Numbered from the stretch's first letter, positions 8,986 to 41,426 are shown. The stretch: DNA of 64,000 bases from Trypanosoma brucei (GCA_000002445.1 CM000208.1:3072001-3136000), one strand, 5' to 3'. Made by a program: numbers and translations. The notes: generated by a model not told the origin, from the sequence alone.

Positions 8986-9197
8986 CGCCGCTCCCCCAAC
9001 CCACCTTCACTACCACTTTAAAGTGATCGGACAGAAGAAACTAGGGAAAGAAATCAAGTGCGCACGGTGCACTTCCATATGAACCGTGATAGGGGTAACC
9101 CTGTCAACTGCATAACAACATGGTAAGAACAAACGCACATTTTAAGCACTTAGGCTTTTATTAATTAACAAGCATCAATTTTCTTCATCCTCCTTTT

Positions 9198-21617: not shown

Positions 21618-23858
21618 TTACTCCCATTCTAGAGGAACAACACAAAAAAGGGTTAAAGAAAACTGCACATCTTCATGTACACACCTAGCGCGAGGAACTA
21701 ATCTATATGATTCCTGAGGCTTCATCGTTACGTCCAAATTGAAAACAACAAGAATATCTGACCTAAACTCCGTTAACCATAAGAGGTCATCACCGCCAGG
21801 ACACAAATAACAAGCACTACGTATTTCCAAGCCAACACCAACGGTTCGTTTGTGGTTTGGTATTTGTGATATTGCCACAACGAAATTTCTAACTGTTATA
21901 TCAGTTTTATTTTTAATCACGAACGACGGGCCCAATTCTGACCCTTTCCTCCACCAGTCCTTAATTGTTTTAAGTTCCGGAGGGGAAAGTGGAACGAAGT
22001 CAAAGCAATCCAAGCACGTTGCGCCCAAGGTACATGGGAAAGGAGCAGAGGAAGACACAGTTACCTGTAACGATTCATTTCCTTTGAGTAACACCACTAA
22101 ACCAACCTCACCACCCTTGGCCTTTTTAGTAGAAAGCAATTCATTTCTGGGACAAACATCACATCTTCGCATTCCCCCCAACCCGTCAGCCGAATATTTG
22201 AAAATATGCAACTGAGTCCATTCATCATGCATTTCATTATCTCTACTAGACGCTCGCACGACCAACACTACCTCTTTCTCCGAATTGCTGTTATTTGAGA
22301 GGAGAAACGAAGGATTACTAGCAAAAGTTGACACAGTATCCGATCCTCCCAGACAACAGCACGGATACTCAATCACATGTCTGTGAATATAGAGTGGATC
22401 ACCGTGAGGCCAGAGAAGTAGGCCAATTCGTTCGAAATACGATATTGCATGCTCTAAGTGCATGCTATTGGATGGAAACTCTACTATACCATCTTTCACC
22501 AAATGTGGAGTAGCGCCGATATATTCAATTGGTTTATCATTCAAGGAAGAAAACCGTACCACACACGTATATCCTGAGTCAGCGTTAGGAGCCTCCACTG
22601 CCGTCAGAAGATAAGGTGTAAACGGAATAATACCAATTTCTTCCAAGCATCTAAAGGCTCTTTCAATCTCCGGATTCGCATGAAACGCAACTATTCTCTT
22701 TTTACGAACACAATCTTTCAAGAATCTGAATATATCAGCTACACTAACATGTTTCTTCAAATTCTTCATTTGAAGTTCAAAGCAGATACCACCGGTCAAG
22801 CACGAGAGGGCATAACCAAGACCAACTCCTGTAATATTTTTGTACCCGCCGTGAAGTTTTGCAAAAGCCTTCTCTACTAAACATCCCCAATAGTCACCAC
22901 TGTTGCTTTCATGGTGAATACCCGCCGGACGATCACCGATCATCGGAATAAAGTCATCAATAACGACCTCTATTGGAGTATCACCGGAAAAAAAACGAAA
23001 TGCGAAGGCTCCTATGCAAGGAAGTTTCCAAATGCAAAGGTTCCTAAGCAAATAAGAAACCTGTTGGACCACACTAAGGGCAGCACGAAGGTTAGAAGTA
23101 TCATTTATTACTGAGGCTACCAATGGTTTGTCACCAACACAGCATTCGTTTTGATCCCTTTGGTCTTCTACAAGAGAGCTCACCCTCACCCACTTTATAT
23201 CACTATTTTTTAAGGCAGTATCAGGCGGGAAACTATTATCTGTAAATGGGGCACCAGATGTAGCTGCGTTGTTCATAATGTCCCTGCAAGACGCATCGCA
23301 TACCTCCGTTGAGCAATGACATGCTCCCATGAAGCAATCCTCATTCCACGATTCCATTCGCCACCTCCAAATTTTTGCTGTCTCTGGAACAACTGCTTTT
23401 CGCCATCGTGTTTGATTTACTTCCCACTGCATTCTATTTATCTCCGTCTGCAAATGTATTGCATATTCAACCTCACTTGATAAACCAGTGCCAGACAAGT
23501 CGACAACGTGTAACCCTGCACAGGCAACAGCCAAATCCTTTAATGCAGCACCGGACGTGTTATCTAAGTGTACGTTGCACAATACGAGACGTGTAACCGA
23601 ACTGCTTCTCAGAACAGCAAAAAGACGTACTAACTGATCGGTTGGTACTTGCATCCCACTGACATCTAACACCTCAATCTCAGACCGCCTTTCAAGAAAA
23701 TGAATGACACAATCGAAAAATTTGGACGAATAGACATACCTGCTGAGATTCAGTTCGTTGGGAGATTTTTCCAAACCTTCCAGCAAATCTGAGTATACTT
23801 TACAACCCAACCACTCAGAGATATACCGGTACTCCTCAGCCACACTAATTATTTCCAT
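21618..23858 (-). CDS. Calpain-like protein with N-terminal leucine-rich repeats; catalytic residues apparently substituted (pseudopeptidase), 746 aa
   Basis: The calpain domain II signature is conserved: VVIDDFIPMIGDRPAGIHHESNSGDYWGCLVEKAFAKLHGGYKNI…LSCLTGG, compared with VVIDDCLP…[21 protein letters not shown]…FTGG. The QGxxGDCWLLAA active-site Cys block is missing. The GHAYS His block reads FTPYLL. The N-terminal 150 aa look like LRRs (LDVSGMQVPTDQLVRLFAVLRSSSVTRLVLCNVHLDN…LHVVDLSGTGL). Confidence 0.75.
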   Translation of the reverse strand: MEIISVAEEYRYISEWLGCKVYSDLLEGLEKSPNELNLSRYVYSSKFFDCVIHFLERRSEIEVLDVSGMQVPTDQLVRLFAVLRSSSVTRLVLCNVHLDNTSGAALKDLAVACAGLHVVDLSGTGLSSEVEYAIHLQTEINRMQWEVNQTRWRKAVVPETAKIWRWRMESWNEDCFMGACHCSTEVCDASCRDIMNNAATSGAPFTDNSFPPDTALKNSDIKWVRVSSLVEDQRDQNECCVGDKPLVASVINDTSNLRAALSVVQQVSYLLRNLCIWKLPCIGAFAFRFFSGDTPIEVVIDDFIPMIGDRPAGIHHESNSGDYWGCLVEKAFAKLHGGYKNITGVGLGYALSCLTGGICFELQMKNLKKHVSVADIFRFLKDCVRKKRIVAFHANPEIERAFRCLEEIGIIPFTPYLLTAVEAPNADSGYTCVVRFSSLNDKPIEYIGATPHLVKDGIVEFPSNSMHLEHAISYFERIGLLLWPHGDPLYIHRHVIEYPCCCLGGSDTVSTFASNPSFLLSNNSNSEKEVVLVVRASSRDNEMHDEWTQLHIFKYSADGLGGMRRCDVCPRNELLSTKKAKGGEVGLVVLLKGNESLQVTVSSSAPFPCTLGATCLDCFDFVPLSPPELKTIKDWWRKGSELGPSFVIKNKTDITVRNFVVAISQIPNHKRTVGVGLEIRSACYLCPGGDDLLWLTEFRSDILVVFNLDVTMKPQESYRLVPRARCVHEDVQFSLTLFCVVPLEWE

Positions 23859-24106
23859 TTAATTACTTCCTTTGCGTTTTGAAAGCGAATATTGAGGACA
23901 TAAAGAGGGAGAGAAAGTACCGTAAGCACAACACGCCACTCCCGGCCCAGGGATAACAGAAACTATATTCATCAATTGAAAAGTAGATATCAAAGGTTTC
24001 AATGTCCCCCAGAGTCAGAGTAGAAGCAAGCCGTTGCGGGTGTCAACGGCGCTGGTAACGCAAACAAGTAAAAGCGAAAAAATCACGTCCCTATCGCAGT
24101 CACCCT

Positions 24107-24136
24107 CCCCCCCCCCCCCCGCAAAAAAAAAAAAAA
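24107..24136. repeat. Homopolymer pair C14-GC-A14 inside the divergent strand-switch region
   Basis: Read directly: ctcccccccccccccc g c aaaaaaaaaaaaaa. A GC-rich block follows at about 24290-24500. Confidence 0.9.
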
Positions 24137-27100
24137 CGTCAAGATCGGCCGCGCGTTGAGACAAGGCAAATAAACTAAACATGGGAAAAGAAAAATTTGT
24201 AGAAGCAAATGAAAACGCACCGCACACGAGCGGTGCAGAAGTACAGAGGTAGCTGGTAAAGAAAAGAAGTGACGCCGGAACGCGCGCCGCCATAGGCTAA
24301 GTAACAGCCCCCTCCACACAACCCATCTCGTGGACCGCAACGGCGCCCCGGCTGCAACGACCACGACCAGGCGCACCACGATCGGACACCCCGCCGAGGA
24401 AAGAAAACAAGGGGCCCCTACACAGCCTCGCCGCAGTAATCCGGAAATGCGCAGCAACCAACCGTCGCAGAGAAGGTTCCATTGCCCAACTCCGCCGCTA
24501 GAAGGGGGAAGGGAAAGAAACACGTAACGCCGCGCCAGTTCAGCTCTTTAGAGGGCCCAAACGGTATGGTCAAAGGAAAACCTGCTACGGGGAAGAGATT
24601 GACAGACGGTTGGTAACTGTCTCGACCTGTTCATTTCGGCTGCGTGTTACCCAAAGGGAGGCGGTACATATTCGGGTAACTGCCAGTCGTTATGTGGTTT
24701 CCGAGGTTTGTAGAAGGAGGAGGCCGAAACGGTATCAGCTACGTTACCGATTTGTGGTCGGTGAGCCGCCAATCCTGCGTTTGCTTGTCTTCGTAGGTCG
24801 CCAACATTTTCAACATCGACTTTGACACACCTTGCTCAGCTACGAGTCTGTTGGTGACTGGACTACGCGACCTCGGCGGTTGAAAGCGAAGGTGAACACT
24901 GGGGCGGGTAAATAAAAGAAGGTCAACTCCCGGACGTGGGCAGGCGGGTCGTTAACTTCGGCCGGTTTGTTAGCAGTTGTGGCGCTACTGTTTAAACAAG
25001 TGGAGGGGTGTGAGACGACACCGCGCACCCAACCATGGGAGGAGTACATCGGTGGAAAGCAGACCCAAAGCGCTTACCGACATTGTGAGAAAGCGATGTC
25101 AAGAGAGGGGAACGAGTGACAGTGCCCACAAACTTTTCATCTCTTTCATTGGCTTCAAAAAAAAAAAAACAAAAAAGGGTCCTCTCAGAGTAAAGGGAAA
25201 GACTACGCAATCAGTATGGACCAATATGATAAGATCAACTGTAAGGAAGAAACCCCGACGGAGGCAACCTGATGCCACAACAAACTTCGGCGTGGAAGAC
25301 GGGAATCATTACGGCTCCGAAAGGGTGGAAGGGAAGTGAAGAGGGAAACAGTTTGAGAGTGATTAAGAAGCTACATCATGCCGTTGTGAACCCGTGGGTT
25401 ACACCCCACTCCCGGTGGTGACTTCTTCAGAACGAAAGGAAATAATTGTTTAGTTGTGAACAGGGGAAATTGAGTTAGTCGGTTGTCAAACGTGCGCAGC
25501 AGTGGAAAATGGGTTGTACGGCAAAAAATGAAGACAGTGTTCCAGAGATAACACGGGCAATTCCCCCAAATCACACCTAACAACACTGTCAATGATTCCT
25601 GCTTATTCACCAGGAAACGACGTCAACACCACGAGCAATTCGACACATGGGTCTGATAATGTCCTCAAGGCACTACACTGTATAATAATGGAACGGCTCA
25701 GCAACTAACCTCATGATAAAGATCAAAAAGTGGGAAAGAAGGGCAGCATTTGAACGGCTAAAAATAACAAATAAGGTAAAAGACACAAGGGGAACCACAG
25801 TTGCGACATCTGTGTTGTGGCTTTTTGAAAGAGACAAATTGCACTTTGGAAAGCGACTCCCGTGTGGTTTGATTCAGCCTCTTCACGCCCCTTTGCGTAC
25901 GTATATGAGGAGCTTGGATGCGTTGTGAGAAAGCGGTGCAACTTTGAAGAGTGTGATACGGACGACAACTTATCAGCTACTCGAAAAGCTCGTAATGTCC
26001 ATAACAAAAATAAATCCAGCGTATATTGAGACAGGAACGGTAAACACCCCAATGGAAACGGGAAGGGAAATGGATGCACAAAGGTTAGTGTCTTGTGTTA
26101 GCTTCCGGATTCGCAACGGGGACAACGTCGGCGAGGTAGTAGCGCACAGAATTGCAAAACGTTTAGTGAAGCAGTACGCGTCGTATGAAGGTGGCACCTG
26201 TTATCCAGGATATGATGTACCACGCTTGGTGGATGTGGATTTGTTCGTTACGGTTCACGATTGGACAAGAGGAAGAGGCTTTGGTGGTTGGATCCGAAGG
26301 TATTATAATTTATGAGGGCGGACTCGAATAAATAGCTGGCTCGGGTTTCTTAAAGGTAGTTAAGTCATACACACTAAACACGTGGAAAGGATCCGGAGCC
26401 GCATCTGGTCGTAACAGCATCATCGTCAAAGCGCATGTTATCGAACTTCACCATCTGTACGGCGGGTTGCGTGGCGGTGAAGTAAACACGTAACTGCCAT
26501 GACAGACAAAGCTGGTAACGCCAGAGGTTCCAGCATACCCTTCCCTCATTGTCTGTCTGGGGATGCTGTGAAGAGTGCAACCACTTGCTCCTTAATTTGT
26601 GCTGCTGCATTCATTGGTTATACAATGCCATCGTTGTTAGGTGAGGTTGAAATGTTAACAATGTGATGCGTAGCAATGTGAACAGAAAGTGCCCTTACAT
26701 CGCCGACGAAACTGAAAAGGTTTGGAGTGCACGTCTGATTTCTTTACACCCCAGTACACCGTCAGGTACGTGGTTCACGTTGGAATGGGAAGGGGCGGCG
26801 AAATGGCGAGGCATTTTTGTAATCTTAACGGACCTTGTACGTTTACTGTCTTCGTATTCGCGAGAATACACAACGTTACTTTACAAGTTATTGCGCGGCA
26901 GAAAGAATGATGTTGAAGCAAAGTGGCGCGGATCGTGCACCCACGAAACGGTGGGGACACGGAACTTTCCAGTTCTACGACGCAGCTTCATGTAAGCGAT
27001 GAGGGAGTAGCTTCATCCCCCTCTAGTAAGTGTGGACCTTCAGGCGATATATTCTTACCTTCACCGACGTTCGGGATGAGGACGGCGGTGTGGACATTCT

Positions 27101-28574
27101 GACACGGGTGACCCGGTGGTATTGACGGCTCACAATCAAAAGTTAGGGTTTAGTTGTGCTATGAACAGGATGCACAAAAAATGTGCGGGAAAGGTGGCGT
27201 TTGCCGACTTTCATTTGTACTATAAGTGAGTCTGCTCTGCGAGAGGTGAGTCTATGGGAGCAATGTCCTGTTGTTTCGCGGAGGGCGCCATATTTTTTGC
27301 GCTTGTCATTGTGGACCGATGGTGTCACAGTCACTGCACATATACCCTCTGACTTAACAGCACGGAGAGTCACTTACGTACCGGATTATATGCCACATGT
27401 TTGCCGTGCGGTAGTCGCCTTTACGTCACCTTTTATTTTCATGCTTTGCTTTCCGTTGGCACACCGCTGCTTGCCCCATGGCATATTCTGTGGATTTGTT
27501 GGGAGATGAGACAGGCTTGTGCCCAGACAAACGTACCGTATTTGAAGTCCAACCTTCTATTCAGACAGATAATACTCGCCATCAGCTTACCGAAGTGATG
27601 TTAACTGATGAGTTTCGGTGTAGGGCTGTGTTTTTTATTCAGAGAGTTGAAGTGCAATTTGTGTGTCAGGGGCGCCGTTTTCATACCCTGTACATATCGC
27701 AAAGGTGGGTGGATGGAAATGATTATTTTTTTTCTTTGATGCAAAGGAGCACACTTTGTTCTAGTCGTATCACGCGTAGGTGTGCAGAGGTTACGTTTGA
27801 AGCATATTACCCAGTTCGTAAAGCACGCTGAAGACATTGAAACACACATCACCAGCTATGTTGATTGACACCACCAGTAGACAAAGCTGACCACTGCGCG
27901 TGAACACTTTTTCGCACATGCCAAATTCTTTAACTATAATACCTATGAGGACGCGGTGTGTTTAGCTTAGTGGTAGTTTATGGAAGAGGGGGGCCATGCT
28001 TGTAGGAAATGCTACTTGGTAGTTCGTGTGAAGGCTGTAAAGCTCGTGCAGTTGAGCTGATTGCCAACGGTGTACTGATGCTACGTCAGCGGTGAGTAAA
28101 TACTGTTTTATTCGATACTTCTATGTTTCAAGGGAGTTTCTGCTGGATGGTAGTTTTTCACATTTTTTACTTTCCTTTCCTACACACGAAGTTTACTGTT
28201 GTTGGGAAGCAACTATCACGTGCATCGCCGTGGTTATATAAATGTTGTGTGCATTGGAAGTGGTTGCCCAAACTCCCTCACTACATGAAGGAGGAGGCAT
28301 GCGTCCTTAGTAAACCCCGAAACACTTGCCTGTCGACGTGCTTCGCGTGACGTGAAGAGGGAGTTTATGTCGGTCGTCTGCCCTCTCCCTCGGGGCCCGA
28401 CCTGAAATGATGCTGGGGATGTTTAGTATTTCTTTGCTTCTGTACAGTTTTCTATACGTGTACACCCTTCGTCGCGACGGGCCCCACATGTTTGAGCACA
28501 GCTATTGCAGTCCAGAAAGCCCTGTCGCGTTGCATGACTCTCACTACCCCCTGGCATAAAATACTACCAACAGT

Positions 28575-28597
28575 GTGTTTTCCTCTCTGTCTTTTAG
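28575..28597 (+). promoter_or_regulatory. Polypyrimidine tract plus AG: candidate spliced-leader trans-splice acceptor for the adenylate cyclase mRNA
   Basis: The run gtgttttcctctctgtcttttAG lies about 165 nt upstream of the ATG at 28764. Confidence 0.4.
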
Positions 28598-28763
28598 GGC
28601 ATAGCAGTTTCGAGCCATACAAATCCTTTTAGCTGCCACCGCGCGTTGACGGGGCTACCGCTGCAAGACACTGCAACGACACACATATACAAATATATAT
28701 ATCACAACCTCCTGATCTAGGAAACGGTTCCCTGGTGACTGCAACTGGATAAATCCTTCCGCC

Positions 28764-31700
28764 ATGAAAGCACCAGCCTTGCTGTTGTTTTTACTGTCAG
28801 CATGTGCCGCATCGCCGCCGACGAGGGAAGCCGGGGGTGTACAAGTAACCGTGACAATTGTGTCTCTGATGTACAGTAAAAACTGGCCTGCTGAGTACAT
28901 CAACGCTGTCAATGCTGGTTTTAACGCATCCCTGGCCGCGCGGAACTGGGTGGTAGCGCCTGGGGTTAATGTTTCGGTAGTTCCACCCCCGTCGTACGAC
29001 ACCCCAGCATATCAGCACCTGGAGAAGTACTTAGAAAATGTAAAGGACGATAACAGCAGTATGGTGGTTGTGTTGGGTCCCATGGGCGAAGAGAGCAGCT
29101 TTGCCTCGTATGATACCCTGAAGAAACACGGTCTTGTCGGATTCGCTCCTATGACTGGGGCTGCGGGTTTTGAGACTTACCTTCCACACCTCTATTTTCT
29201 TCGCCCTGGTTTTACGGGTGAACTCATAGCCCTTATCCGTTATGCCGTGACTTACCTGCGCGTTCTCCGGTTGGGGTTTACCTACCTTGAAGGTATGATG
29301 GGGGGTACTACCACATACGAGAATGCTGTGGACTTTTTGTCACGCATGGGATACACGTTTTGTTGTATTTTCACAGTGCACGGGACAGCCGAAAGGCGGA
29401 CGGTAACAGGTAGGGAGTTCGATGTGGCATGGAACGAGTTTGCCGGGAAACTTCCACAGGCTGTTATTGTTGTTGCTACTGTAAATGATGAAATAAAGAA
29501 TTTTGTCAAGAACCTTGTGGCTGATCCACGCACCGCGGATGCGTACCTGTTGGCTCCCTCACTAATGCAGAAGTCGATCGTGACAGTATGGAAGGAGGCA
29601 TTGGAAGCTGCAAATGCCACTTTTGTCCCTCGTCGCGTAATCCAGACAGGCACCAACCCACTTGCCAACGACACAGACAGTCGTGCCATTAGTCGCTTTC
29701 AAGGTGAGATGCGGGATTATCTTACGGCATATGGGGAATGGGCCGGTGTCGACGACGCAGAGTGCTTCCTCAAGGACGACGCAGAGGGAGAACTGATGGT
29801 TGCTGGTTGGCTCGCTGGAGAGGTGCTATCGCAAGCTCTACGGAGCCATGGATGGATGAACAATCGCACAGCTTTCATGGAGTCGCTCTACGAGCAACGC
29901 CGTTACGTCGTTGACAACATCGTTATTGGTGACTTTGGAGGTAGTTGTGAGGACAATTCTACTGATAGCGGTGCCATCTGCCAGTGCAACCGCGGCGGTA
30001 GGAAGGTATACATGAAGGAGATTGCAGAGGGCTACCGACTAAGACCGCTTGTTGGCGGCTACATCGTACAGTCCCAACTGGAGTGTAATAGTGATCCTGC
30101 AATCCTGCAGCCGCCGCTCAGCGGACTCGCCATCCTCATAAATGATCGCCAGGAGCTTACGAGGGCTGTGAAACAGTTTAAAATTGGCACGTCTGCCGTA
30201 TCTGCAGATGGCGAAGACGATGACGTGGACAGGCTTGTCATTCAGGTATTTGACACAAAGGCGCATACCGCTTTCGACGATCTCAAGGCGCTGCAACAGA
30301 GGAAAATTTTAACTGCTTTGTTCGGTGTCGTAACTGAGTCGTTGTTAGAACTCTCAAACGTGACATTCATTGACCCAATGGTGCCAACGCCTCATTTAAA
30401 CACTTTCAACAGGAATGTGATCCGCCTGTCGCCAACATTGGAGCAGCAGCTTTATGTACATGCGACCTACCTGTCTAGCATCCGTGCTGTTAATGTCCAC
30501 TGTATTGTCAGAAGCAACGAAGCGGCTCGCATCATCGACGTGCTTAGGAAGACGTTGATTACCTTTGGTCTGAATCTCAGTTCCACAAAAGTATTGGAGG
30601 CCAGGACCACGATTAGGGGGAATCTACCGACAAGGGGCAGTGTATTTCTCATTGGGCTCGTCGGCACTGACATTGCGGCAATTGAAGAACACCTCCGCAC
30701 ACACGAGAGGACTCTTATATTTGTCCAGTATTCTGACATCGCGTTGCTATACAATGAGTTTGTGCAAACATTTAACAACACTCATACTGCCGAACGTCTT
30801 GTGTTCGCAACAAGTTTACCGCACTGGGCAGACGCCAACACGACATCGGAGACTGTGCGACGGTTCCAGGACGTTATATCTGATGTGGCGCTACGGACAC
30901 CGCTGTCACTGTTGGGTTTTGCCACTGGCAGGTTGATGCAGAGGAACTTGCAGCGTATGCCCAAGGTGACCCCTGAACTCCTGTCCGACCTCTTCTTCGA
31001 AGAAACAGTGATCACTGTCGACGACATGCGCTATGGACCATTCAGGCACTACGATTGCGTAATCAACGATGTCGTTACCGAGGATAATTGTATAACAAAT
31101 TTTGGTGCGGCGGACATCAGTGTGTGGTCGATGGCGCGTGCGCTACGACCACATGAGCCAGTACTGCAGGAAGCGATGTTTCCGTCGATGAAGTATAACG
31201 TTCCTAATGGTAACGCCCTCACCCCCGCACAACTTGCTGGCGTAATCGGTGGGACCTCGGCAGCCCTGTTCCTCCTTTTGGGGCTTGGCGTGCTATTGTA
31301 CTTCGTCCTTCGCGATGGTCGCGACAACGACAACGCGCCCAAGGAACCAACAGACCCGGTGACGCTCATCTTCACCGATGTCGAGAGTAGCACTGCGCTG
31401 TGGGCTGCTCACCCCGAACTGATGCCGGAGGCCGTCGCAGCTCACCACAGCATGATCCGCTCGCTGATTTCCCGTCACGGATGCTACGAGGTGAAGACGG
31501 TTGGGGATTCGTTCATGATAGCCTGCAAGAGCCCAACAACCGCAGTCAAGCTTGTGCTCGACTTACAGGTGATGTTCATGCAGTACGACTGGGGCTCTTC
31601 TGTGTTCGACGATTCGTACCGCGAGTTTGAGTTGCGTAAGGCGGATGATGTCGACGGTTACGCCCCACCAACCGCGCTCCTTGACAGCGCAACGTACGGG

Positions 31701-32393
31701 CAGTACTGGAACGGGCTGCGAGTGCGAGTTGGTGTGCACACCGGGTTGTGTGATATTAGACATGATGAAGTGACGAAGGGTTACGATTATTACGGGCAGG
31801 TTCCCAACCTTGCTGCGCGGACGGAAAATGTGACGAACGGCGGGCAGGTGCTGCTAACGCACGCGATGTACCTTGCACTCAGCACCGCAGAACGTGAGGA
31901 ATTTGACGTGACCCCATTGGGTGAAGTACCGTTGCGTGGTGTGCCGGAGCCTGTTGTAATGTACCAGCTGAACGCCGTTCCCGGCCGCTCTTTTTCTGCA
32001 CTTCGTTTGGACCGAGTTATTGACGTGCTGGAGGAAGGCGGGGACGGCACAGGCACTTCTGGTAGCGACCGCGCGTCAACAGTCATCGAGCTGAGTGAAT
32101 CTGCGCAAGCGATTGCTTCTTCCCTGCTGTCTCTACTGGGGACCCTGACACCCGCACAACGCCACAGGACGCTTATGCTCTTCTGTGAACGCTGGCGCGT
32201 CGCACTTCCTCGTAGCTTGGGCGCCGTATGGGACGATGACGGCTGTCGTGAGGTTATACGGCGCGTCGCCGCAAAGGTTGGTCACGTTGTAGATTTTCAT
32301 TCACTGGGAACGAGTGAGCGCTCGTCAAGCACGTTGTCAAGCGCATCGGTAATTATTATCCCCAATCGGACCACGGATTTTGATAAGTTTTAA
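28764..32393 (+). CDS. GRESAG4: Receptor-type adenylate cyclase (GRESAG4 family), 1209 aa
   Basis: A signal peptide (MKAPALLLFLLSACAASPP) leads into a large extracellular domain. A single TM segment follows (GVIGGTSAALFLLLGLGVLLYFVL). The class III cyclase catalytic domain is present (TLIFTDVESSTALWAAHPELMPEAVAAHHSMIRSLISRHGCYEVKTVGDSFMIACKS … VRVGVHTGLCD…YYGQVPNLAARTEN). Confidence 0.9.
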   Translation: MKAPALLLFLLSACAASPPTREAGGVQVTVTIVSLMYSKNWPAEYINAVNAGFNASLAARNWVVAPGVNVSVVPPPSYDTPAYQHLEKYLENVKDDNSSMVVVLGPMGEESSFASYDTLKKHGLVGFAPMTGAAGFETYLPHLYFLRPGFTGELIALIRYAVTYLRVLRLGFTYLEGMMGGTTTYENAVDFLSRMGYTFCCIFTVHGTAERRTVTGREFDVAWNEFAGKLPQAVIVVATVNDEIKNFVKNLVADPRTADAYLLAPSLMQKSIVTVWKEALEAANATFVPRRVIQTGTNPLANDTDSRAISRFQGEMRDYLTAYGEWAGVDDAECFLKDDAEGELMVAGWLAGEVLSQALRSHGWMNNRTAFMESLYEQRRYVVDNIVIGDFGGSCEDNSTDSGAICQCNRGGRKVYMKEIAEGYRLRPLVGGYIVQSQLECNSDPAILQPPLSGLAILINDRQELTRAVKQFKIGTSAVSADGEDDDVDRLVIQVFDTKAHTAFDDLKALQQRKILTALFGVVTESLLELSNVTFIDPMVPTPHLNTFNRNVIRLSPTLEQQLYVHATYLSSIRAVNVHCIVRSNEAARIIDVLRKTLITFGLNLSSTKVLEARTTIRGNLPTRGSVFLIGLVGTDIAAIEEHLRTHERTLIFVQYSDIALLYNEFVQTFNNTHTAERLVFATSLPHWADANTTSETVRRFQDVISDVALRTPLSLLGFATGRLMQRNLQRMPKVTPELLSDLFFEETVITVDDMRYGPFRHYDCVINDVVTEDNCITNFGAADISVWSMARALRPHEPVLQEAMFPSMKYNVPNGNALTPAQLAGVIGGTSAALFLLLGLGVLLYFVLRDGRDNDNAPKEPTDPVTLIFTDVESSTALWAAHPELMPEAVAAHHSMIRSLISRHGCYEVKTVGDSFMIACKSPTTAVKLVLDLQVMFMQYDWGSSVFDDSYREFELRKADDVDGYAPPTALLDSATYGQYWNGLRVRVGVHTGLCDIRHDEVTKGYDYYGQVPNLAARTENVTNGGQVLLTHAMYLALSTAEREEFDVTPLGEVPLRGVPEPVVMYQLNAVPGRSFSALRLDRVIDVLEEGGDGTGTSGSDRASTVIELSESAQAIASSLLSLLGTLTPAQRHRTLMLFCERWRVALPRSLGAVWDDDGCREVIRRVAAKVGHVVDFHSLGTSERSSSTLSSASVIIIPNRTTDFDKF

Positions 32394-33519
32394 GGGTTTT
32401 GGGGGGTTAATGGCACAACAGGAGCCCGAGTCACGTGCCAATACGCCCTCCCGAGCAAAACTCTTTGCCAGATGTAAAGTGGCTTTGTTGGTTTTCCACT
32501 CTCCGCCGGGTGTCTTGTTTTGTTTCTATTAGCTAGTGCCATTATAAAAAAATTTGTGGTGAAAACGTTTTTTACAATTTCCTCCCTCCCTATGGACAGA
32601 TATTTTAATAAATAGGAACTAACACATGTGCTTACTAACAAAAGTTATGTTGTTGTGCTGGTATCTGAGCGTAGTTGTTGCGCACATATGCGCTAATGGG
32701 TTATCGACCTCTCCCGTATTCTACGTTATGGGAGGGGGGGGGGTTTGGTCTTTTGTGTTTTTCCCTGCAGTTGGTACTTAAGCATCATTATGTAACCATG
32801 CGCCAAGGAAATTCACCTCCGGCACTGCTAACAAACCTATTTAGGTTACATTAGTGGTAAATATTTTTTTTTTTCAAGTAATAGTGAACCTCTTTTTTCG
32901 AAATATTTTCTTAGCAGCATGCATGTCTTATGGGGCGAGCGCTCAACAACGTCTCCGGCGGTGAAATCTTATTTTTTTTTCGTTCCCGATAGCCTGATGG
33001 CCTTAACAAACAAGAGAGAGTCTCTGTCACCCTTTCTTACTTACGGTACCCGTCCCTGTGCTTCGTCAGTGACGTCGCGGTAGCTACACCTGCAACTTTC
33101 AATGGAGAGATTTCCTGCAGGCTGTCGTGTACTTTTTCCCTTTTGCTTTCTCTTGTTTTTTTTTTCCGTCCACAACGCACAAAAGTGGGATTGGGTTTTG
33201 TGGTGATGACACCACCCCAGTACTTTAGCGGAACATGTTGAGCGTATGAAAACTAAAGCTTATGGGAAAATATCTCATGTGATGCCAGTCGTGCCAACGT
33301 GAGTCGGAGACCAACGTCTCCACGCTACTTGGAGAGACTGAGAATCACTGGCGTACCATACCTGCAAAGCCTCGGGGTGTGCGCTAGTGTTTTATCGGTA
33401 TGATCGCATGCTGCAGGATGCGACAGTTTATTTCTGCCCCCTGTGTCGGGTGCGTGCTCCCCACAGTCCTGGTTAGTGGGGCGAGCAGCTACGATGTTAA
33501 GTGAAAAAAAATTTTAATT

Positions 33520-33591
33520 GATGGCGGAAAAATGGCCGGATGTCGTGCAACATAACAGTAACACACAGCATCGGGCCATTTTTCCGCCATC
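33520..33591. repeat. Near-perfect 20-bp inverted repeat with a 32-nt spacer (hairpin-forming)
   Basis: Arm 1 is gatggcggaaaaatggccgg. Arm 2 is cgggccatttttccgccatc. The match is 19 of 20. Confidence 0.85.
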
Positions 33592-35957
33592 GCGGCTAGC
33601 CGTGTGAATACATGGTTCCGCTCACATTTACTAACCCCGAGCGGAGGTGCTTGCTGCCACACGGCTTCAGCCTGCAGGAGATGGGTAGTGTATTATAATT
33701 GTTGTATCCGAAGCACTGAGAGCTGTGCAATGCAAACCTTGTTGGTTGATATTTACACTTGTTGATGGGATTTTCATGCGCGAACCTTCTCCTCATTCGG
33801 ATGAAATTTTCTTTCTTTTAGTCGTGTGGACACGTCTTAACAGTCTTTCGTTGCAAGTCTACCCAGCTCTTTCTTTCCTTTTGTCGTTGTTTACCTGCGA
33901 TTCAAAAAGAATGTGTACCTGAAGAAAAATTATCATGTAATCATTTCATCGAGTGTGTGGTGTGTTATCCCCAAAGCTTGTTGCTTGACGTCGCCGCTAC
34001 CCAGTTGGCACATCGCCCTCCCTTCGTATCACGCCTCACTAACAGGGTCAAGTGGGTGTGTTTTGGTTATGTTTGTTTCGAACTGTGAGGACACAATTCC
34101 ACTCGATTAGAGGCGTTTGTGGAGGGCAACTGTTGGTGCTGTCGTCCACTCACCAAATGTACTTCAGTGAAGCCACTTACTCAGGCGGTAATTACGCTAA
34201 ATCTGTATTTGTTTCTTGTTTTGACCCATCGCGGAGAAATGCCGGTTTGGGGGGAGGGGAGAGGGGCAACACGTGAAGTGCTCCTCGAAGGAGGTCGGTG
34301 GGAAAAACAGAGTGAATGGGAAAAGGGCAGTTGGAAAAGCTCCCCCGAGTGGAACGCCGGTTATGAATGGTGGGAGCAGGTGTATGGACTCGGTTGCTAA
34401 AAGAAGCCAGGGGAAAGGCTTGCCGCAAGGAGTGGATCTCTCAAAGAAGGAAAGGATACACGCTGGTGCCGAAGAAGAGAGCTCCGTTTAGGGAACAAAA
34501 AGGAACAAAGTGGATGTGCAGCGTCCACTCTCTCCGTGGCCTTCCGTTTGTTGAAATTAGTGGGGTATCGGTGGGCATTGCCGACACGTACGGTACATTT
34601 TATCTGCTGACTTCACTTTCACTGAGACAGTTGCCACCTACAGTGCTGACGGTGGGGCCAGTTGAGACACCAACACCGACATTGGGAACACCTGTGTGAA
34701 CTCTAATTTCCCCCCTGTTGTCGATCCCACAGTTGGTATCAGGGAAAATAATATATTCGTTCTCGTGGGAAGGTGTAGCTCTTCCAGTAAGCATTGGACA
34801 TGGAAACATTACGGTGAAAACTGGGATATACTCATGTACAATGGTACTGAAAAAGAAAGCAGGATCTGGTATGCCAGTCGTAACCGTAAAGTGGAACAAA
34901 CCCCAAAAATTGAAATATCTTTTACCAGCGCTGCTTCCCCTTGGAGATAAATCTCCATTACGGTTCCTCGGTGGTGCAGGAAGCGCGGCCAGCACATCAA
35001 GTGATCCGCTTGCCTTCCCCACGTACGCGAAGAACACACGGAGGCATACAGCTGCAAAGATGTTGTATTAGGTTGGCGATGGCAAAATGTGGCCCCTTGC
35101 CGTAGGTGAGACGCCCGTTGGTGTGATGGGGACTTTTGTTTCTCGGTGAAATAGATTTCTTAATGGTAGGACCTGCCCGGAATACCGCACGATGCTCGAG
35201 TCGAAAGGCGTTGGTGCAACGTGGAATGAGCTGCTTGGAACTGTGCCCAGCGCGGTTGGTAACTCACCAAACCATAGACGACCCGGAAACACCGAGAGGA
35301 CCATCATATTAAACGTTGAAGACGTTCTCGTGATCTTCTTTACTCGGCCGAAAACACGAGGGGGACTCCGGCGGCGTGATCGCCCCCGCCCATGGCCAGC
35401 GAATGGCAGTCGGACATATACCTCGCGACATTGAATAAATTCCTTATATTTCTTTCTTCTATGTGAACGGCAGATCGCCCACCTGCTCGAATGAACAAAA
35501 CTGCCACAGAAGTTCTCACCATTTACCTTGCACGCCCTGTGGGCAAATTCGAGGTTGTCAAGTCTACGGTGAGGTTATGGAACTAACAAAGTAAACTGCT
35601 GTGCGGTACGTGGCCTTCCGTGACGGAATCCCTGCGCCGCCTGCACCGTCAGTTTGCTCGGAGGCCCCCCTGGTGTAAGAGTGTGGATTGATGATCTTGA
35701 CACTGTTGTATAGTTGCCAGCCGTTATTGTGGGGAAAGGAAAAGCAGTTTCAAACGAGCGAACCGTCACATGGCGAGCGCGGCAGTGATGTTGCACGTGC
35801 ACGCCCTCATCCTTAGCCAAAGGTGTTTTTTTACGCGCTGCTTCCGTTTCGGGAAACCTCACGAGGGCTGCAGCTCGAGATTTTTATTTGGCATACTTCG
35901 ATGATTTCCCACAACCTTTGCACACCAATTTGGTAAATACGGGAGGTACGGGGGCCG

Positions 35958-35959
<2 letters not shown>

Positions 35960-36003
<44 letters not shown>
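35960..36003. repeat. (CA)22 microsatellite
   Basis: Direct read. Track ORFs 35859..36179(-) and 36055..36402(+) run through it as poly-Cys-Val (poly-CV, VCVCVCV) artefacts. Confidence 0.95.
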
Positions 36004-36004
<1 letters not shown>

Positions 36005-36379
36005 CAACCATAGCTTTTAAAGGAGTAGGTGTAAACGATACATCAACAGAATTTTTGTTTTGCTTGGGAAGTGCCACTTTAGGGGATGGGGAACAATTTA
36101 TGGTCGATGATGAGGCTTCCCGGGCATTTTGGAAAAGAAGGATGGAATTGCTCAGGGTCTGGTGGTTAAAGTTTTGCAACGGGAGTGTGCCGAGCCCCTT
36201 CCCACAACTTTTTCCTCACTCGAGTGAGTGGCCCGACTTTTACGTGTCGTCTCCCGGTTGTTTCGGTGGCGATGCTTCTGAATGTTTTCAGTCTAATGAA
36301 CAGGAAGAAGGAGCCGTGCCCCTCAGTAGGAAAGGTGGCGTACGGTGGATCATTTCGCACAGCATTGGAGGGCTTCGGA

Positions 36380-36401
36380 TGTGTGTGTGTGTGTGTGTGT
36401 G
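36380..36401. repeat. (TG)11 microsatellite, reverse complement of the (CA)22 lying 376 nt upstream
   Basis: Direct read. Confidence 0.95.
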
Positions 36402-37670
36402 AAATCCTTCCCATACTGCAGGGATAAAAAAGGGTTTCCCGGATTCTATCCTCTTGTCTGTGTTTCCCGATGTCGCGGCAGACCCCTTTTAGGCTGCTAC
36501 CGTGGATTTTACATGCAGTAGGGCTTTGCTGAGAGAAGGTGCGCGGGTAGGTCAAAAGAAAAAGACAAAAAACGTAGGGAAAAGTGATCATTTCGCCAGC
36601 GTCTGAAAAGAAAATCCCCACTTTACCAATTTTTCTAACGGCGAGGGGCTTCACCACGAATAATTTTATAAGCGCAAGTTCGTGCGTCGCCGGTGTCAGG
36701 GGAAGTGGGCTTCATCAGGGCAAACGGCAGTGACACCAACATTCGCTCGCTCCTGTACAAAAAGAAAATGAATAAGGTGCAAAAGGTAATAAATCAAAAG
36801 AAAAAAAAGGAAAAGGGCGAAAAGGAAAAAAAACGAAACGTCTTAACTAAGTTGGTGTACAAGACACGAAAATTTATATCGTCCCTTCAATAAGGAGCGG
36901 ACTTCATGTTGAACGCCCAGGCACACACAATCTCCCCGTCAGTTGTGGTGGGAAGCGACTAGAGAGGACGCGGTGTGCCAAACTTTCTCGTCACCACTGG
37001 ACCCCGTAGTGCTGTAACTGTGTTTTCGTGTGTGCAGAGGGGAGGATCATATTCTGCCGCGTCGGTACGACACATGGCGCCGCATTTTGTTAGTGTCAGA
37101 AGGACACGCCCTTCGTGGCAGTAGCCGCGGATGGCGGACGGTTTTCTTTTTTCTCCCCCCCCCCTGCACATCTCTACCCCTCATGCGCAAACCTTTCCAT
37201 CGTTAATTTGCCGTCATGGTACAACATTCCCCCAATCGTTCCGGGCGGTCGTTCTAATACACAACGTAGTCCCAATCCTAACCCTTTTCCGGTTCCAACA
37301 TTTTGATGCAATATTTTTTTCCGCATGGAGTAATGACCCTTTCCTCGCAGCACCATGCATTTCCGTTACACAGTTCCCATGTTTCCACGCAGTCGCAGTG
37401 TGTGCGACCACCGCTTCTGAGTTCTCTGTTTAACAAACAATATAATGCACATGCCCACCGAGTAAAACACCCCGCAACCAGCCAAAAGGGGGAAAAAAAG
37501 ACGTCCGCTACTCGATTCCCGCTTCTTCACCGCACTCACCTTTACGAGCGCAGCATGGTACGGAGCGTACACGGCACTCACCATCCTCGATGGCGTTTGC
37601 GGCGTCTCTGGAGCTGGCTCCGGTTGCAATAACCCTTTTTTTTCCCCTGTCACCCACGTTCTTCGCTATG

Positions 37671-40600
37671 TTAGCTGTGAAACCAGCGGACGAGGTATTC
37701 GGGATAACTTCGCGTACCGGGTGACGGCACCGACAATTCCCACTGACCTGCCGCGGGCCCGCTGCCTCTCACCATCGCGCATCGCTGCACAACAAAGAGG
37801 CCGGTGTCAGGCCCCGCTGACGGTACGCAACATGTTTCCATTTCGTCCTCATCACTCACCACAGCCCCCAGTGCGACGCGGAACACGATTGCCCACGTGG
37901 CCCACGGGTTGTCATCGTTGCGTGTTTGTTTTTTGGCCTCCATCCACGGCGGAACAAATGCAAACCGGCATTTTTCTTCTTTAGTCCCCTCGAGACATAT
38001 TTGCCATGCCTCCTCCTCGTCCTTGCAGTTGTACCACAAGAATCGTTCGTTGACCTCACAATCGTCGCTGCACGGTAAGAAGTGAGGTTGCTCTCTCAAC
38101 GCCACCGGCACTGAAAAAGAACTACACCCGCGCGCCAGCACCAGTTGCTGGCGATATTTCCAATATGTTTCCCACAAGTAAATGTTACGGTTGAGAAACA
38201 CCGCGGTGCCCTGAGGTGATCGGTGCATGAGAACGCGGTTGTCTGGAAACAACGAGACAGGCCCCATGTTTTTTTGCGCTGTCCAATACGGCGGGTAGGA
38301 AACCTCCTTGGTAAAGAGGTATTGACGTTCGTCACAATCATAGTTTACTTTGATAAGGCGCCGTACGAAGCCTCTTGCATCCAGCAGACTCCAACGAGGC
38401 TCCAGTTTACCCGTCAAACGGTCAGCGACTTCCAGAAACACATTAAACATTTCCCTTATCTGTTGCTCGGCCTGGCCGCATCCAGTCACCACACCTGAAG
38501 AGGCCCTGTCGTCACTAGCGTTGCGATGGGGAGAAGATTTGGTCTGCGGCAGGGTGCCACGAAGGTATGGGAGTACTTCAGCGTGTAGAGTCACTCCAAA
38601 GTCAGCAGCGTCATCCTGAGCGGTTTTCGTCCCGTATTTGTGCACCTTCAGGGAGTTTGAAAAAAATCCGAGCGTCGTATTTCCAAAGTCATCATGTGTG
38701 AAGTTGGACATGCAGATATCGCCATGGGTTACCTGGCACGAGTGAATGTCAATAATAGCCTGCAAGGCGCCGTGGAGCCATCGAACCCCGTGTTGTTTGA
38801 TTCTTTTTAAGATGTCCTGGGGTGAGCTAAATCGCACTTGTGTTCCGCCCCGGGGTAGATGAAAATATATTTGATTTGTGTGCTCATCACCGAATACTTC
38901 AATTGCAGAGGTCACGCGACAGGACGCGCACGTCTCCTGAAGTCGCAGCTCACGTTCCATGAGGGTTTTGAATACCTTGGTTGTTTGTACCGAAGACTCA
39001 TTTTCATATTTTGGGAATGTATACCGCTTGAGCCAGCATGGTGTAACGGTGCCGCTGATGGGATCCACATACTCAGCGCACAACAGGGCAAACTCGATTT
39101 CGCTGATCTCTTTTCCATCTTTTAACACCATCCCCTGATAGGTTGCAGGTTTGTGGGGTTCCAATACATTTCGGGGCTCAACCACAACGTGCTTGTAACT
39201 CACTAAGGTACGTTCACGCTCGTATTTTACATAGCGCCGAATTTCACATTTTTGGTGCGCGCAACGGGCGCAGGAGGAAGGCAGCAATTTGAAGAACCCA
39301 ATATTTTCTGGCAGGTGCACACTGTAGATATTGTATAACTCGCACGTGGCGGCGTCTACCTCCGTAAACACTTGGTGAAAAAGCAAACTTTCCTTTGTGT
39401 CCCCTTCACGTTGTTCGCTCGACTTCAATTTTTCCTTCTTAGCGGTAGATTTGGAGGTTCGCCCCCCTACGTCATGCGTTGCGTGCCGCAGTGACGCAAC
39501 ACTCTTCATTTTGCTGTCCCGCGCTCTGTAATATTCCTTGCACGTTTCCCGTAGTCGCTGGTGCGTATCAACAGCGTGTGCTCCCGAAAGCGCAAACCCC
39601 GCAATAAGCCCGATGATTCTCACCTCATCCGCGAATTCCAGCGTCCTCTCATCTTCTGTTTCATCAGATTCTTCCAACGAATCGCTGTCGCCGGTGCAGA
39701 GTGCTTGTATCGCGGTCTGTATGTCAAACAGCGCACTGAGTGTCTGTCCCGTCCCCGCCACCACTGTTACATCAGCAGTGGCACCGGTGTGCTGCTTGAA
39801 AAAGCTGTGGGCGAGGCTTTGCGCGGTTTTCCACAACTCAAATGCCTCGATCAACTTGCCGGTCACGTGCTTTGGAAAGCAAGTTGCGACAATTGTCCTC
39901 CTTAGATCCTCACGCTTTGCCACCGCCTCACATTTTGTGCACCACCGGAAATCACAGCAGGAACGCTCGACGGGTAAAACGGTCGTTGCGGTATCCCTCG
40001 CAGCGACTTCATCCGCGATGTGAACAAATACATGCATTCTGATGAACATGTGCACGTTGACCTTGAGCCGCGACCATCCCTCACAATCCCTGTGCAGCTG
40101 TTTCAACCACGAAAACGGAACTGCCTCGGTTGTGAGTTGGTAACAACGCTGAATAGCGGCTAGTACTACACAGATGCTGTGCTGCGTCGTCGAAGCTTTC
40201 GTTTCCGAAACTGCGTATTCCTCATCAGCGACACTTTCATCCGGCTCGTCCACGCTAAGTTCCTCCAGTTCGCTCAACTCCAGTGGGGTCCCCGCTTCTA
40301 ACGCCAAGAGTCCACTGTCACACAGCTCTTGGGCTTCTTGTGAAGAGTTCTTTCCAGTACGAAACAGCGATTGCAGAAAGCTCACAACGGCATTCTTCTT
40401 TCGTTTTCGGGGGCGCCGCGCACCATCTGTGTGGATTGCTTCCTCATTTTCTTGACACAAACGCCGGCAATCCTCATGCCAGCCCTGGCAGAAGGCGTAG
40501 ACCTCAAAGTCATGGTTCAGCACACCCGTCAACTCACCGCTCCCGCCTCTGTCGGGGTGGTGCACGAGCAAAAGTGCTCTGTAAACCTTTCTGCACTCAT

Positions 40601-41426
40601 TGCGTTCGTTTACAAAACCCCACTTCCGCTGCAGCTGAACTATCGCAAAATGCTGGAAGGATATAGGCATCAACGCAATATTAGCCGAGGCACGGTACTC
40701 GCTAATATCCGTGAGACCCTCCCACCCGCATGCCACTCGGTAATCTCTGTAGTGTTGGACGATACGGCATGTCTCAAAGGAGAGCAGGCAATGCTGTGGT
40801 TCGAGTAGTTCCTCGAAGCGCCTCCGGGCCCCCTGTTCGTTACGGGGGTACCCGTACTGTCTCCTAAGCTTAATTTTAAGAATTAGACGATCAACATGCC
40901 GAGTGAGTAGCGTTACAACGCAGAAGTTTAAAGCAACAGAAAGCACTGTAGTTGCAATAACTTGCCCAACCACTGGAATGGAACCCAACCCGATCAGCGA
41001 TCCAATGGCGTATCCAATCGCCAAGCCAGTGGCTGCGGTTCCAACCTCCTTGCCAATGCGCAACGCCAAATCCGTACGATCCATTGGCAATCCCAATACG
41101 TTAAGCGCCCCACGCCGGTAGTCGCTGACAGCGCGGAATGACTCGTATGCAGCGACCGCTGCCGCCGCTATCGGGTTGGCCACAGTTGCCGAAAAGACAA
41201 GGTTGGTTGTGATGCTCACACCCGTGCGAGCAGCACCATCAACAATATCTCCCCTCTTCAAAGCAAGAACCGACTCGTGGGAGTTTGTTGGGGAAACGGT
41301 GTGATCCGATGCATTCTGAGGTGTAAGCGACAGTTGAATGTTTTCCTGCGTCGGGTCCTCCTCTCGTCGTTTTGATTCATCATCATCAACAATAATAAAC
41401 TCACTGGCATCTTCCTTATCCGTCAT
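37671..41426 (-). CDS. Large hypothetical membrane protein with a J-domain-like HPD motif and a C-terminal protein-kinase-like (probably pseudokinase) region, 1251 aa
   Basis: A hydrophobic N-terminal block at about aa 120-175 (GTAATGLAIGYAIGSLIGLGSIPVVGQVIATTVLSVALNFCVVTLL) predicts 2 TM segments. A J-like segment follows (…ECRKVYRALLLVHHPDRGGSGELTGVLNHDFEVYA). Near the C-terminus, AIIDIHSCQVTHGDICMSNFTHDDFGNTTLGFFSNSLKV resembles kinase subdomains VIb-VII, but the DFG Asp is absent. The ATG is at 41424-41426. Confidence 0.65.
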   Translation of the reverse strand: MTDKEDASEFIIVDDDESKRREEDPTQENIQLSLTPQNASDHTVSPTNSHESVLALKRGDIVDGAARTGVSITTNLVFSATVANPIAAAAVAAYESFRAVSDYRRGALNVLGLPMDRTDLALRIGKEVGTAATGLAIGYAIGSLIGLGSIPVVGQVIATTVLSVALNFCVVTLLTRHVDRLILKIKLRRQYGYPRNEQGARRRFEELLEPQHCLLSFETCRIVQHYRDYRVACGWEGLTDISEYRASANIALMPISFQHFAIVQLQRKWGFVNERNECRKVYRALLLVHHPDRGGSGELTGVLNHDFEVYAFCQGWHEDCRRLCQENEEAIHTDGARRPRKRKKNAVVSFLQSLFRTGKNSSQEAQELCDSGLLALEAGTPLELSELEELSVDEPDESVADEEYAVSETKASTTQHSICVVLAAIQRCYQLTTEAVPFSWLKQLHRDCEGWSRLKVNVHMFIRMHVFVHIADEVAARDTATTVLPVERSCCDFRWCTKCEAVAKREDLRRTIVATCFPKHVTGKLIEAFELWKTAQSLAHSFFKQHTGATADVTVVAGTGQTLSALFDIQTAIQALCTGDSDSLEESDETEDERTLEFADEVRIIGLIAGFALSGAHAVDTHQRLRETCKEYYRARDSKMKSVASLRHATHDVGGRTSKSTAKKEKLKSSEQREGDTKESLLFHQVFTEVDAATCELYNIYSVHLPENIGFFKLLPSSCARCAHQKCEIRRYVKYERERTLVSYKHVVVEPRNVLEPHKPATYQGMVLKDGKEISEIEFALLCAEYVDPISGTVTPCWLKRYTFPKYENESSVQTTKVFKTLMERELRLQETCASCRVTSAIEVFGDEHTNQIYFHLPRGGTQVRFSSPQDILKRIKQHGVRWLHGALQAIIDIHSCQVTHGDICMSNFTHDDFGNTTLGFFSNSLKVHKYGTKTAQDDAADFGVTLHAEVLPYLRGTLPQTKSSPHRNASDDRASSGVVTGCGQAEQQIREMFNVFLEVADRLTGKLEPRWSLLDARGFVRRLIKVNYDCDERQYLFTKEVSYPPYWTAQKNMGPVSLFPDNRVLMHRSPQGTAVFLNRNIYLWETYWKYRQQLVLARGCSSFSVPVALREQPHFLPCSDDCEVNERFLWYNCKDEEEAWQICLEGTKEEKCRFAFVPPWMEAKKQTRNDDNPWATWAIVFRVALGAVVSDEDEMETCCVPSAGPDTGLFVVQRCAMVRGSGPAAGQWELSVPSPGTRSYPEYLVRWFHS

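Follow-up and report, generated by a model that had tools for sequence, protein, structure and literature searches.

We analysed a window of 64,000 nucleotides of chromosome 10 of Trypanosoma brucei TREU927 (version 4 (v4) coordinates 3,072,001-3,136,000; adding 3,072,000 to a window position gives its v4 position), in which a single gene, the receptor-type adenylate cyclase gene ACP4, is read on the plus strand from within a cluster of minus-strand genes. In the un-nested map of open reading frames (ORFs) of at least 150 amino acids for the whole window, the minus strand carries all but two, the cyclase and an ORF with a TTG start at 482-973, which adjoins the window edge. The cyclase is flanked by a gap of 4905 bp on its left (23859-28763) and one of 5277 bp on its right (32394-37670). 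As both are more than twice as long as the largest of the 18 spacers that separate minus-strand genes elsewhere in the window (212-2102 bp), they are far beyond the local norm. A sequence-only reading of this DNA had given the strands, coordinates and gap geometry exactly, and our ORF maps and the six-frame fragments of both gaps agree with it that the cyclase is the sole intact plus-strand gene. Its description of the gaps as ORF-free holds for intact long ORFs, but the right gap contains two short annotated coding sequences (CDS) and a trans-sialidase pseudogene. The features of the interval are collected in Table 1.

Table 1. Features of the ACP4 interval and its two neighbouring genes, in window positions
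Feature	Position	Strand	Basis or remark
Calpain-like cysteine peptidase gene	21618..23858	-	Pfam Peptidase_C2; orthologues directly downstream of J-domain gene in other trypanosomes
Residual spacer beside calpain-like gene	23859..24868	.	No blastn match to chromosome 7 locus L010
ACP4 5′ flank, duplicated from or converted against the ACP3 upstream region	24869..28763	+	blastn, identity profile; non-coding
Transcript Tb10.NT.185 (v4 3098641-3100404)	26641..28404	+	Spliced, polyadenylated, 1763 nt; Kolev Table S7
Receptor-type adenylate cyclase GRESAG4 (Tb927.10.13040, Tb10.389.0430, ACP4)	28764..32393	+	Exact match XP_827790/EAN78678
Transcript Tb10.NT.141 (v4 3105186-3105782)	33186..33782	+	Spliced, polyadenylated, 596 nt; Kolev Table S7
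Trans-sialidase/sialidase family pseudogene	34269..35607	+	Pfam BNR_3, phmmer, tblastn/blastn against chromosome 7 gene
Inverted microsatellite arms, (CA)22 at 35960-36003 and (TG)11 at 36380-36401	35960..36401	.	Perfect, 372 nt apart
Annotated 141-amino-acid "hypothetical protein" Tb10.389.0400 (v4 3108591-3108166)	36166..36591	-	Kolev Table S2; ORF list
J-domain/pseudokinase-like conserved protein gene	37671..41426	-	Exact match XP_827793/EAN78681; orthologues across trypanosomatids

ACP4 has the make-up of a GRESAG4 protein, with two Peripla_BP_A-cyclase ectodomains followed by a class III catalytic domain (Guanylate_cyc). Pfam finds these in the order PF25495, PF25493 and PF00211, the ectodomains having E values of 2.6e-51 to 4.5e-138 and the catalytic domain one of 1.8e-39. 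ACP4 is an adenylate cyclase specific to the procyclic stage; it is found at the tip of the flagellum and binds CARP3, and its gene, named as a GRESAG4 cyclase, was measured at 5.87 RNA per procyclic cell (Kolev et al., 2010, PMC2936537, Table S6). Its closest paralogue is ACP3 (Tb927.7.7470) on chromosome 7, with 67% amino acid identity, and a neighbour-joining tree groups ACP4, ACP3 and GRESAG4.3 in a T. brucei-only clade that is sister to T. congolense genes. A protein of 1254 amino acids recorded as Schistosoma mansoni Smp_112590 also has the full GRESAG4 architecture, at 47% identity to ACP4, and probably represents a trypanosome contamination of that assembly.

What does the long right gap contain? 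Stop-to-stop fragments of at least 70 amino acids from both gaps were scanned against Pfam and gave one match, to the sialidase/trans-sialidase propeller BNR_3, at 29.9 bits against a cut-off of 27 bits. When the three-frame translation of 33700-36300 was compared with PDB sequences by phmmer, the match was to trans-sialidase of T. cruzi (1ms5_A; E = 2.6e-32): 34546-34848 aligned with residues 52-151, 34850-35425, in another frame, with residues 154-344, and a weak collinear piece, 35500-35592, with residues 373-403. Compared with the trans-sialidase of T. brucei chromosome 7, the relic covers residues 51-504, in three frames, and by blastn its first 581 bp are 82% identical in nucleotide sequence to the orthologue of TbSA B2 (Tb927.7.7480). 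Collinear similarity over the catalytic beta-propeller places it in the trans-sialidase family, no intact reading frame remains, and neither an N-terminus nor a lectin domain could be detected in it. Because its pieces lie in three frames and its aligned parts hold at least five in-frame stops, it is a pseudogene. This pseudogene was previously unannotated, and the annotated "hypothetical protein, unlikely" Tb10.389.0410 at 34841-35071 (+) (v4 3106841-3107071) has to be reinterpreted as a fragment of it. The other annotated CDS of the gap, Tb10.389.0400, has no Pfam match and is probably not a real gene; no transcript was detectable from either of the two (Kolev et al., 2010, PMC2936537, Table S2). 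There are no cyclase fragments in either gap. The presence of a dead trans-sialidase gene on the right means that the plus-strand unit once had at least two genes.

The left gap has its counterpart on chromosome 7, upstream of ACP3. We made this comparison with the orthologous locus of T. b. gambiense (L010), that is, between subspecies, and found the window collinear with L010 from 24869 to 32367. By blastn, 25246-28380 matches L010 5829-8978 with 94.5% identity over 3151 bp, and in steps of 200 nt identity is 73-86% between 24900 and 25700 and 94-99% from 25700 to about 28900 (L010 about 6280-10140), or about 96% over the flank. The high-identity stretch takes in the first 45 or so cyclase codons, with a border about 130 nt into the CDS; over the remaining CDS ACP4 and ACP3 are 62-79% (about 70%) identical, and beyond the stop codon identity is about 50%, the level of chance. 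The 126 substitutions of the 3.2-kb stretch (transitions to transversions 92:34) are evenly spread, identity tapers at the left edge, and the stretch holds no ORF with a coding-like substitution pattern, its longest ORF being broken in the other copy. The flank is not present at the chromosome 10 paralogue (0.6 Mb) or in the T. congolense cyclase array. An apparent insertion of 635 bp in the chromosome 7 copy was discarded as an assembly gap within the near-identical region, consisting of 380 N (L010 8979-9358) and a flanking exact redundancy of 255 bp; the two near-identical copies may have confused the gambiense assembly at this point.

On chromosome 7 an 816-amino-acid trans-sialidase, the orthologue of Tb927.7.7480 (TbSA B2), lies on the ACP3 strand, about 6 kb upstream of that gene, and Tb927.7.7480-7470 is listed as a two-gene unit (Kolev et al., 2010, PMC2936537, Table S14). 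The two loci thus share a cyclase, a trans-sialidase and a flank, each at its own level of identity, and this mosaic (flank 96%, 5′ part of the trans-sialidase 82%, cyclase body 70%) fits tracts of ectopic gene conversion better than a single duplication. The excess of flank over CDS identity, the graded border and the neutral-looking substitutions are as expected of such tracts, though selection on a shared regulatory or long non-coding RNA element may also have acted.

The gene order of other trypanosomatids bears on how the cyclase came to its present place. Directly downstream of the J-domain gene, T. rangeli, T. conorhini and T. theileri have co-directional genes for the calpain-like protein, Vps16 and the PKA catalytic subunit, in that order, and the spacer between the J-domain and calpain-like genes, which measures 425 bp, about 500 bp and 2.1 kb, respectively, holds no cyclase; this was the comparison of orthologous loci that the sequence-only reading had proposed. 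The same order is found in Leishmania infantum and Leptomonas pyrrhocoris, with spacers of 6.5 and 4.5 kb that have no called gene and nothing conserved between the two species. None of the other-species loci that we compared has a cyclase at the J-domain/calpain junction, only the T. congolense cyclase array matching the cyclase itself, and the orthologous spacers of seven other species resemble the T. brucei gaps neither in nucleotide nor in translated sequence. For T. b. gambiense and T. equiperdum, accession numbering points to a gene order like that of T. brucei. As the J-domain and calpain-like genes stand side by side on one strand in T. rangeli, T. conorhini and T. theileri, the ACP4 unit can be read as a lineage-specific insertion. 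We hold it very likely that the 13.8-kb interval arose by a lineage-specific insertion in reverse that created the ACP4 unit, and that the cyclase alone in it is still a working gene. We conclude that the insertion took place after the split from T. vivax, and probably also after that from T. congolense. What remains of the old spacer, we conclude, is about 1.0 kb beside the calpain-like gene and about 1.7-2 kb beside the J-domain gene.

From the topology of the locus the sequence-only reading had suggested an inversion or an insertion, and it is the second that the ancestral J-domain/calpain adjacency and the T. brucei-only cyclase clade bear out. An inversion in situ, in which the cyclase would be an old minus-strand member of the cluster that was merely flipped, is compatible with the topology taken by itself, that of one reversed gene within a cluster. 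It would leave unexplained a junction with no cyclase in T. rangeli, T. conorhini, T. theileri, T. cruzi, L. infantum and Leptomonas, the lack of a cyclase within 10 kb of the T. vivax calpain gene, the grouping of ACP4 with T. brucei paralogues instead of syntenic orthologues, and flanks that are paralogous to chromosome 7. Contradicted in this way by synteny, phylogeny and flank paralogy, inversion in situ is a reading to which we give hardly any credence.

Was the T. brucei insertion a single accident or the latest of several at one place? In T. cruzi the spacer is 6.5 kb long and carries, on the opposite strand, a pair of overlapping ORFs in which DGF-1_N and DGF-1_beta-sheet domains are found; these ORFs belong to a truncated and frameshifted DGF-1 pseudogene (L001 14079-17818, -) with a topology like that of the T. 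brucei cyclase unit. In T. vivax the 10 kb upstream of the calpain gene hold no cyclase but have, on the opposite strand, degenerate ORFs of a non-long-terminal-repeat retroelement (L008 1262-5837, -), with RVT_1 and faint zinc-finger matches. The T. grayi contig ends 50 bp upstream of its calpain gene. Three lineages thus have different opposite-strand inserts, and with the T. grayi contig end and the unusually long Leishmania and Leptomonas spacers they would suit a junction that has long been a recurrent landing or fragile site, and perhaps an internal start/stop site of transcription in the ancestor, with the T. brucei block as its latest occupant. Against this, three trypanosome species have a compact junction of 0.4-2.1 kb, the long spacers share nothing conserved from one species to another, three matching orientations are statistically meaningless, and the T. 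brucei gaps hold no detectable remnant of a retroelement. We regard a recurrent site as possible but doubtful. For an insertion borne by a retroelement of the ingi/RIME/DIRE type, the flanks showed no reverse-transcriptase or endonuclease remnants; the T. vivax element gave no tblastx match to the window, and the gap fragments of at least 70 amino acids gave no Pfam RVT match, results that bear on coding elements rather than on short non-coding ones such as RIME.

That ACP4 forms a transcription unit of its own has been known since 2010, and one-gene units are a recognised minority class. The entry "Tb10.389.0430 - Tb10.389.0430, +, Divergent" describes an RNA polymerase II (Pol II) unit of one ORF between Tb10.389.0470-1070 (-, Divergent) and Tb10.05.0270-Tb10.389.0390 (-, Internal), and in at least 16 units of the same table, the ACP4 unit included, the first ORF is also the last (Kolev et al., 2010, PLoS Pathog, PMC2936537, Table S14). 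At every divergent unit, 5′-triphosphate RNA of both strands was enriched at sites marked by the histone variants of Siegel et al. (2009) (Kolev et al., 2010, PMC2936537). Our map places just one intact plus-strand protein-coding ORF between the two strand switches. The sequence-only reading had called the unit monocistronic, with start and termination regions of its own. The start region agrees with the class "Divergent" in the published table, and the convergent side is probably a known locus of small interfering RNA (siRNA), as discussed below. The word monocistronic is not supported, first because two further processed plus-strand RNAs, Tb10.NT.185 and Tb10.NT.141, come from the gaps, the very kind of transcript which that reading had named as evidence against itself, and second because the unit once carried a second gene, the trans-sialidase.

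Both additional RNAs are rare, at 0.21 RNA per procyclic cell for Tb10.NT.185 and 0.47 RNA per cell for Tb10.NT.141 (Kolev et al., 2010, PMC2936537, Table S7), and neither has a convincing ORF. An AG dinucleotide stands directly before the start of each (26641 and 33186), which confirms the coordinate offset, itself set by the published v4 positions of Tb10.389.0400 and Tb10.389.0410, and a classical polypyrimidine tract precedes the start of Tb10.NT.141. Within Tb10.NT.141 lies a near-perfect hairpin of 72 nt (33520-33591, +) with arms of 28 nt and a loop of 16 nt; its folding energy is -49.9 kcal/mol (z = -7.4 against shuffled sequences), and its matches to microRNA-precursor models are all below threshold. 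The hairpin could be a source of small RNA or the relic of a small inverted repeat. The locus goes unmentioned in the main text of Schulz 2016 and of Reynolds 2016.

Does the shared flank give ACP4 an independent regulation, as the sequence-only reading had supposed from the isolation of the unit? In that case the flank would act as a promoter, through a long non-coding RNA (lncRNA), or both, and would provide ACP4 and ACP3 with gene-specific procyclic Pol II transcription. For the ACP4 unit a separate start region has been published (Kolev et al., 2010, Table S14), its 3.2-kb 5′ flank has been kept about 96% identical beside a CDS at about 70% and 3′ flanks that cannot be aligned, and both flanks are transcribed into long ORF-less RNAs, that of ACP3 as Tb7.NT.111 (4900 nt, 3.39 per cell, ending about 300 nt upstream of ACP3). 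Expression also runs in parallel, ACP4 and ACP3 being both up-regulated in midgut procyclic forms and both lowered by bromodomain inhibition, and one report (PMC11796357) describes epigenetic control of a whole Pol II unit in T. brucei. It is, however, only the pairing of identical 5′ with unrelated 3′ flanks that sustains a transcriptional or 5′-borne mechanism. The chromosome 7 flank lies inside a two-gene unit, downstream of a trans-sialidase, rather than at a strand switch. The stage pattern is shared by ACP5 and about 11 further cyclases encoded at other loci, and bromodomain inhibition lowers this same set. The flank substitutions, neutral-looking, even and graded at the left edge, fit recent gene conversion. 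Since the stage behaviour of ACP4 is common to cyclases across loci, a private promoter is not required. Stage control in trypanosomes is mainly post-transcriptional. In our view an autonomously regulated module is improbable, and slightly more improbable still is its fullest version, in which the shared 3.2-kb flank would be a cis-acting start-region/lncRNA module that makes Pol II transcription of ACP4 and ACP3 gene-specific, stage-dependent and bromodomain-sensitive. The uniformity of such a module could be kept by selection or by conversion. If it were true, one gene would be controlled at the level of its promoter in an organism believed to have no such control, and the near-identical flank of two co-regulated paralogues is a target for asking whether Pol II start regions carry gene-specific information.

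On the other side of the cyclase, the J-domain gene is the last of a minus-strand unit that extends to the right and converges on the cyclase unit. DCL2-dependent small RNAs were found at 49 of the 49 convergent units surveyed (Tschudi et al., 2012, BMC Genomics, PMC3447711). The last of these on chromosome 10, CTU43 (version 5 (v5) 3,163,700-3,186,300), yielded 5255 reads, 2726 from the top and 2529 from the bottom strand, which went down to 4.9% in dcl2-/- cells (Tschudi et al., 2012, PMC3447711). In the table of Kolev et al. no convergent junction on chromosome 10 comes after that of ACP4 and the J-domain gene, and an offset of about +70 kb between v4 and v5 coordinates, deduced here, also suits the neighbouring CTU42. 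From this order and these approximate coordinates, the convergent gap is probably CTU43.

How, then, might the ACP4 unit have come about under the insertion reading? We infer the following order of events. A block of about 11 kb (about 24.9-35.6 kb), made up of a non-coding 5′ flank, a GRESAG4 cyclase gene and a trans-sialidase gene and akin to the TbSA B2-ACP3 locus, would have been placed in reverse in the spacer between the J-domain and calpain-like genes of one minus-strand cluster. The cluster would have been split by it, giving one divergent and one convergent strand switch. Pol II would start in the divergent region, as published data indicate, and plus-strand transcription would yield three processed RNAs (Tb10.NT.185, the ACP4 mRNA and Tb10.NT.141) and run on through the decayed trans-sialidase into the oncoming minus-strand transcription, where the overlap would lead to DCL2-dependent siRNAs and to termination. 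The unit would look monocistronic because only the cyclase stayed a working gene.

Several observations weigh against this account. The T. vivax J-domain gene was not seen beside the retroelement; at the edge of that locus, upstream, stands a co-directional gene of 942 amino acids. In T. congolense, accession numbering places four annotated products between the calpain (CCC94334) and the J-domain protein (CCC94339); none of the four is among the T. congolense cyclase clusters that we compared. The T. b. gambiense chromosome 7 assembly is reference-guided and gapped within the region compared. The gene order differs between the two loci, trans-sialidase-cyclase on chromosome 7 and cyclase-trans-sialidase on chromosome 10, so that one simple duplication cannot account for both. 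Lastly, the assignment to CTU43 depends on the approximate v4-to-v5 offset.

Profiles of polypyrimidine tracts and purine skew hinted at switch points at about 26.5 kb and about 34.1 kb, the skew measure being noisy (-0.03 +/- 0.07 on known spacers), and the second of these was dropped as an edge of the inserted block because the plus-strand trans-sialidase relic reaches 35.6 kb. The inverted (CA)22/(TG)11 microsatellite arms lie close to the right end of the block. A scan of the window and the gaps found no tRNA in the gaps, and the gaps hold no Rfam family, two weak matches to microRNA models merely reflecting the hairpin at 33520-33591. A scan for bacterial-type promoters and terminators is irrelevant to this organism and was set aside: it returned 6 promoter-like sites against 4.7 expected from shuffled sequences, and 12 terminator-like sites against 5.3, which are meaningless for Pol II here.

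Homopolymer runs also occur in both gaps. C14 and then A14 occupy 24103-24136 (on the minus strand, T14 and then G14), with the calpain ATG about 250 nt downstream of them; a run of G10 is found at 32734-32743, 340 nt past the cyclase stop, and C10 at 37155-37164, about 500 nt past the stop of the J-domain gene. G-runs reportedly occur near T. brucei start regions.

The calpain-like gene is the first of the leftward minus-strand unit Tb10.389.0470..1070 (Kolev et al., 2010, PMC2936537, Table S14), and the J-domain gene is probably Tb10.389.0390, judged by its numbering. Four window proteins match chromosome 10 entries of TREU927 exactly: besides the cyclase and the J-domain protein, these are the PKA catalytic subunit (EAN78675) and a PhoD-like phosphatase (EAN78682). 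Genes for a cyclic AMP phosphodiesterase (13256-15124, -) and the PKA catalytic subunit (17227-18240, -) lie with the cyclase within 20 kb. That the phosphodiesterase and PKA genes are neighbours is an ancestral trait, found also in T. rangeli, T. vivax and T. grayi, and the cyclase joined them by insertion.

Short units in the published table appear several times to hold GRESAG4 or trans-sialidase genes, as we confirmed for Tb927.7.7480-7470 and for Tb927.5.330-300, of which Tb927.5.330 is a cyclase. The cyclase and trans-sialidase families may be linked with positions close to transcription starts. Tb927.7.6850 is probably also a trans-sialidase, and the chromosome 6 clusters are probably cyclase arrays.

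A one-gene ACP4 unit by itself changes nothing. The value of the locus lies in the pseudogene, in the flank shared with ACP3 and in the repeated use of one junction in three lineages, and it exhibits one route to a one-gene unit, in which an old cluster is split by an insertion and the gene brought in alongside then decays.

How does the ACP4 unit compare with systems already described? Among the one-ORF units of Kolev et al. (2010) it is itself an entry, with at least 15 others in Table S14. That table counts annotated ORFs only, whereas the ACP4 unit also yields two ORF-less RNAs and contains a dead second gene. It probably corresponds to a member of the siRNA-producing convergent units of Tschudi et al. 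(2012), the small RNAs of CTU43 coming from both strands and depending on DCL2, but unlike those units as described the ACP4 overlap region contains a pseudogene. The chromosome 7 unit is alike in having the same two gene families on one strand, the closest cyclase paralogue, a 5′ flank of about 96% identity that gives rise to a long ORF-less RNA, and a short unit that starts at a divergent strand switch; it differs in that its trans-sialidase is intact and upstream of the cyclase, whereas that of the ACP4 locus is a pseudogene and downstream, and in that the 3′ flanks are unrelated. In TriTryp comparative genomics, surface-gene families and retroelements are said to occupy synteny breaks. The ACP4 locus resembles such breaks in that a lineage-specific member of a surface/flagellar-membrane family interrupts a conserved gene order, at the same place as DGF-1 in T. 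cruzi and a retroelement in T. vivax, but it differs from them in that the break lies inside a co-directional cluster and made both strand switches itself.

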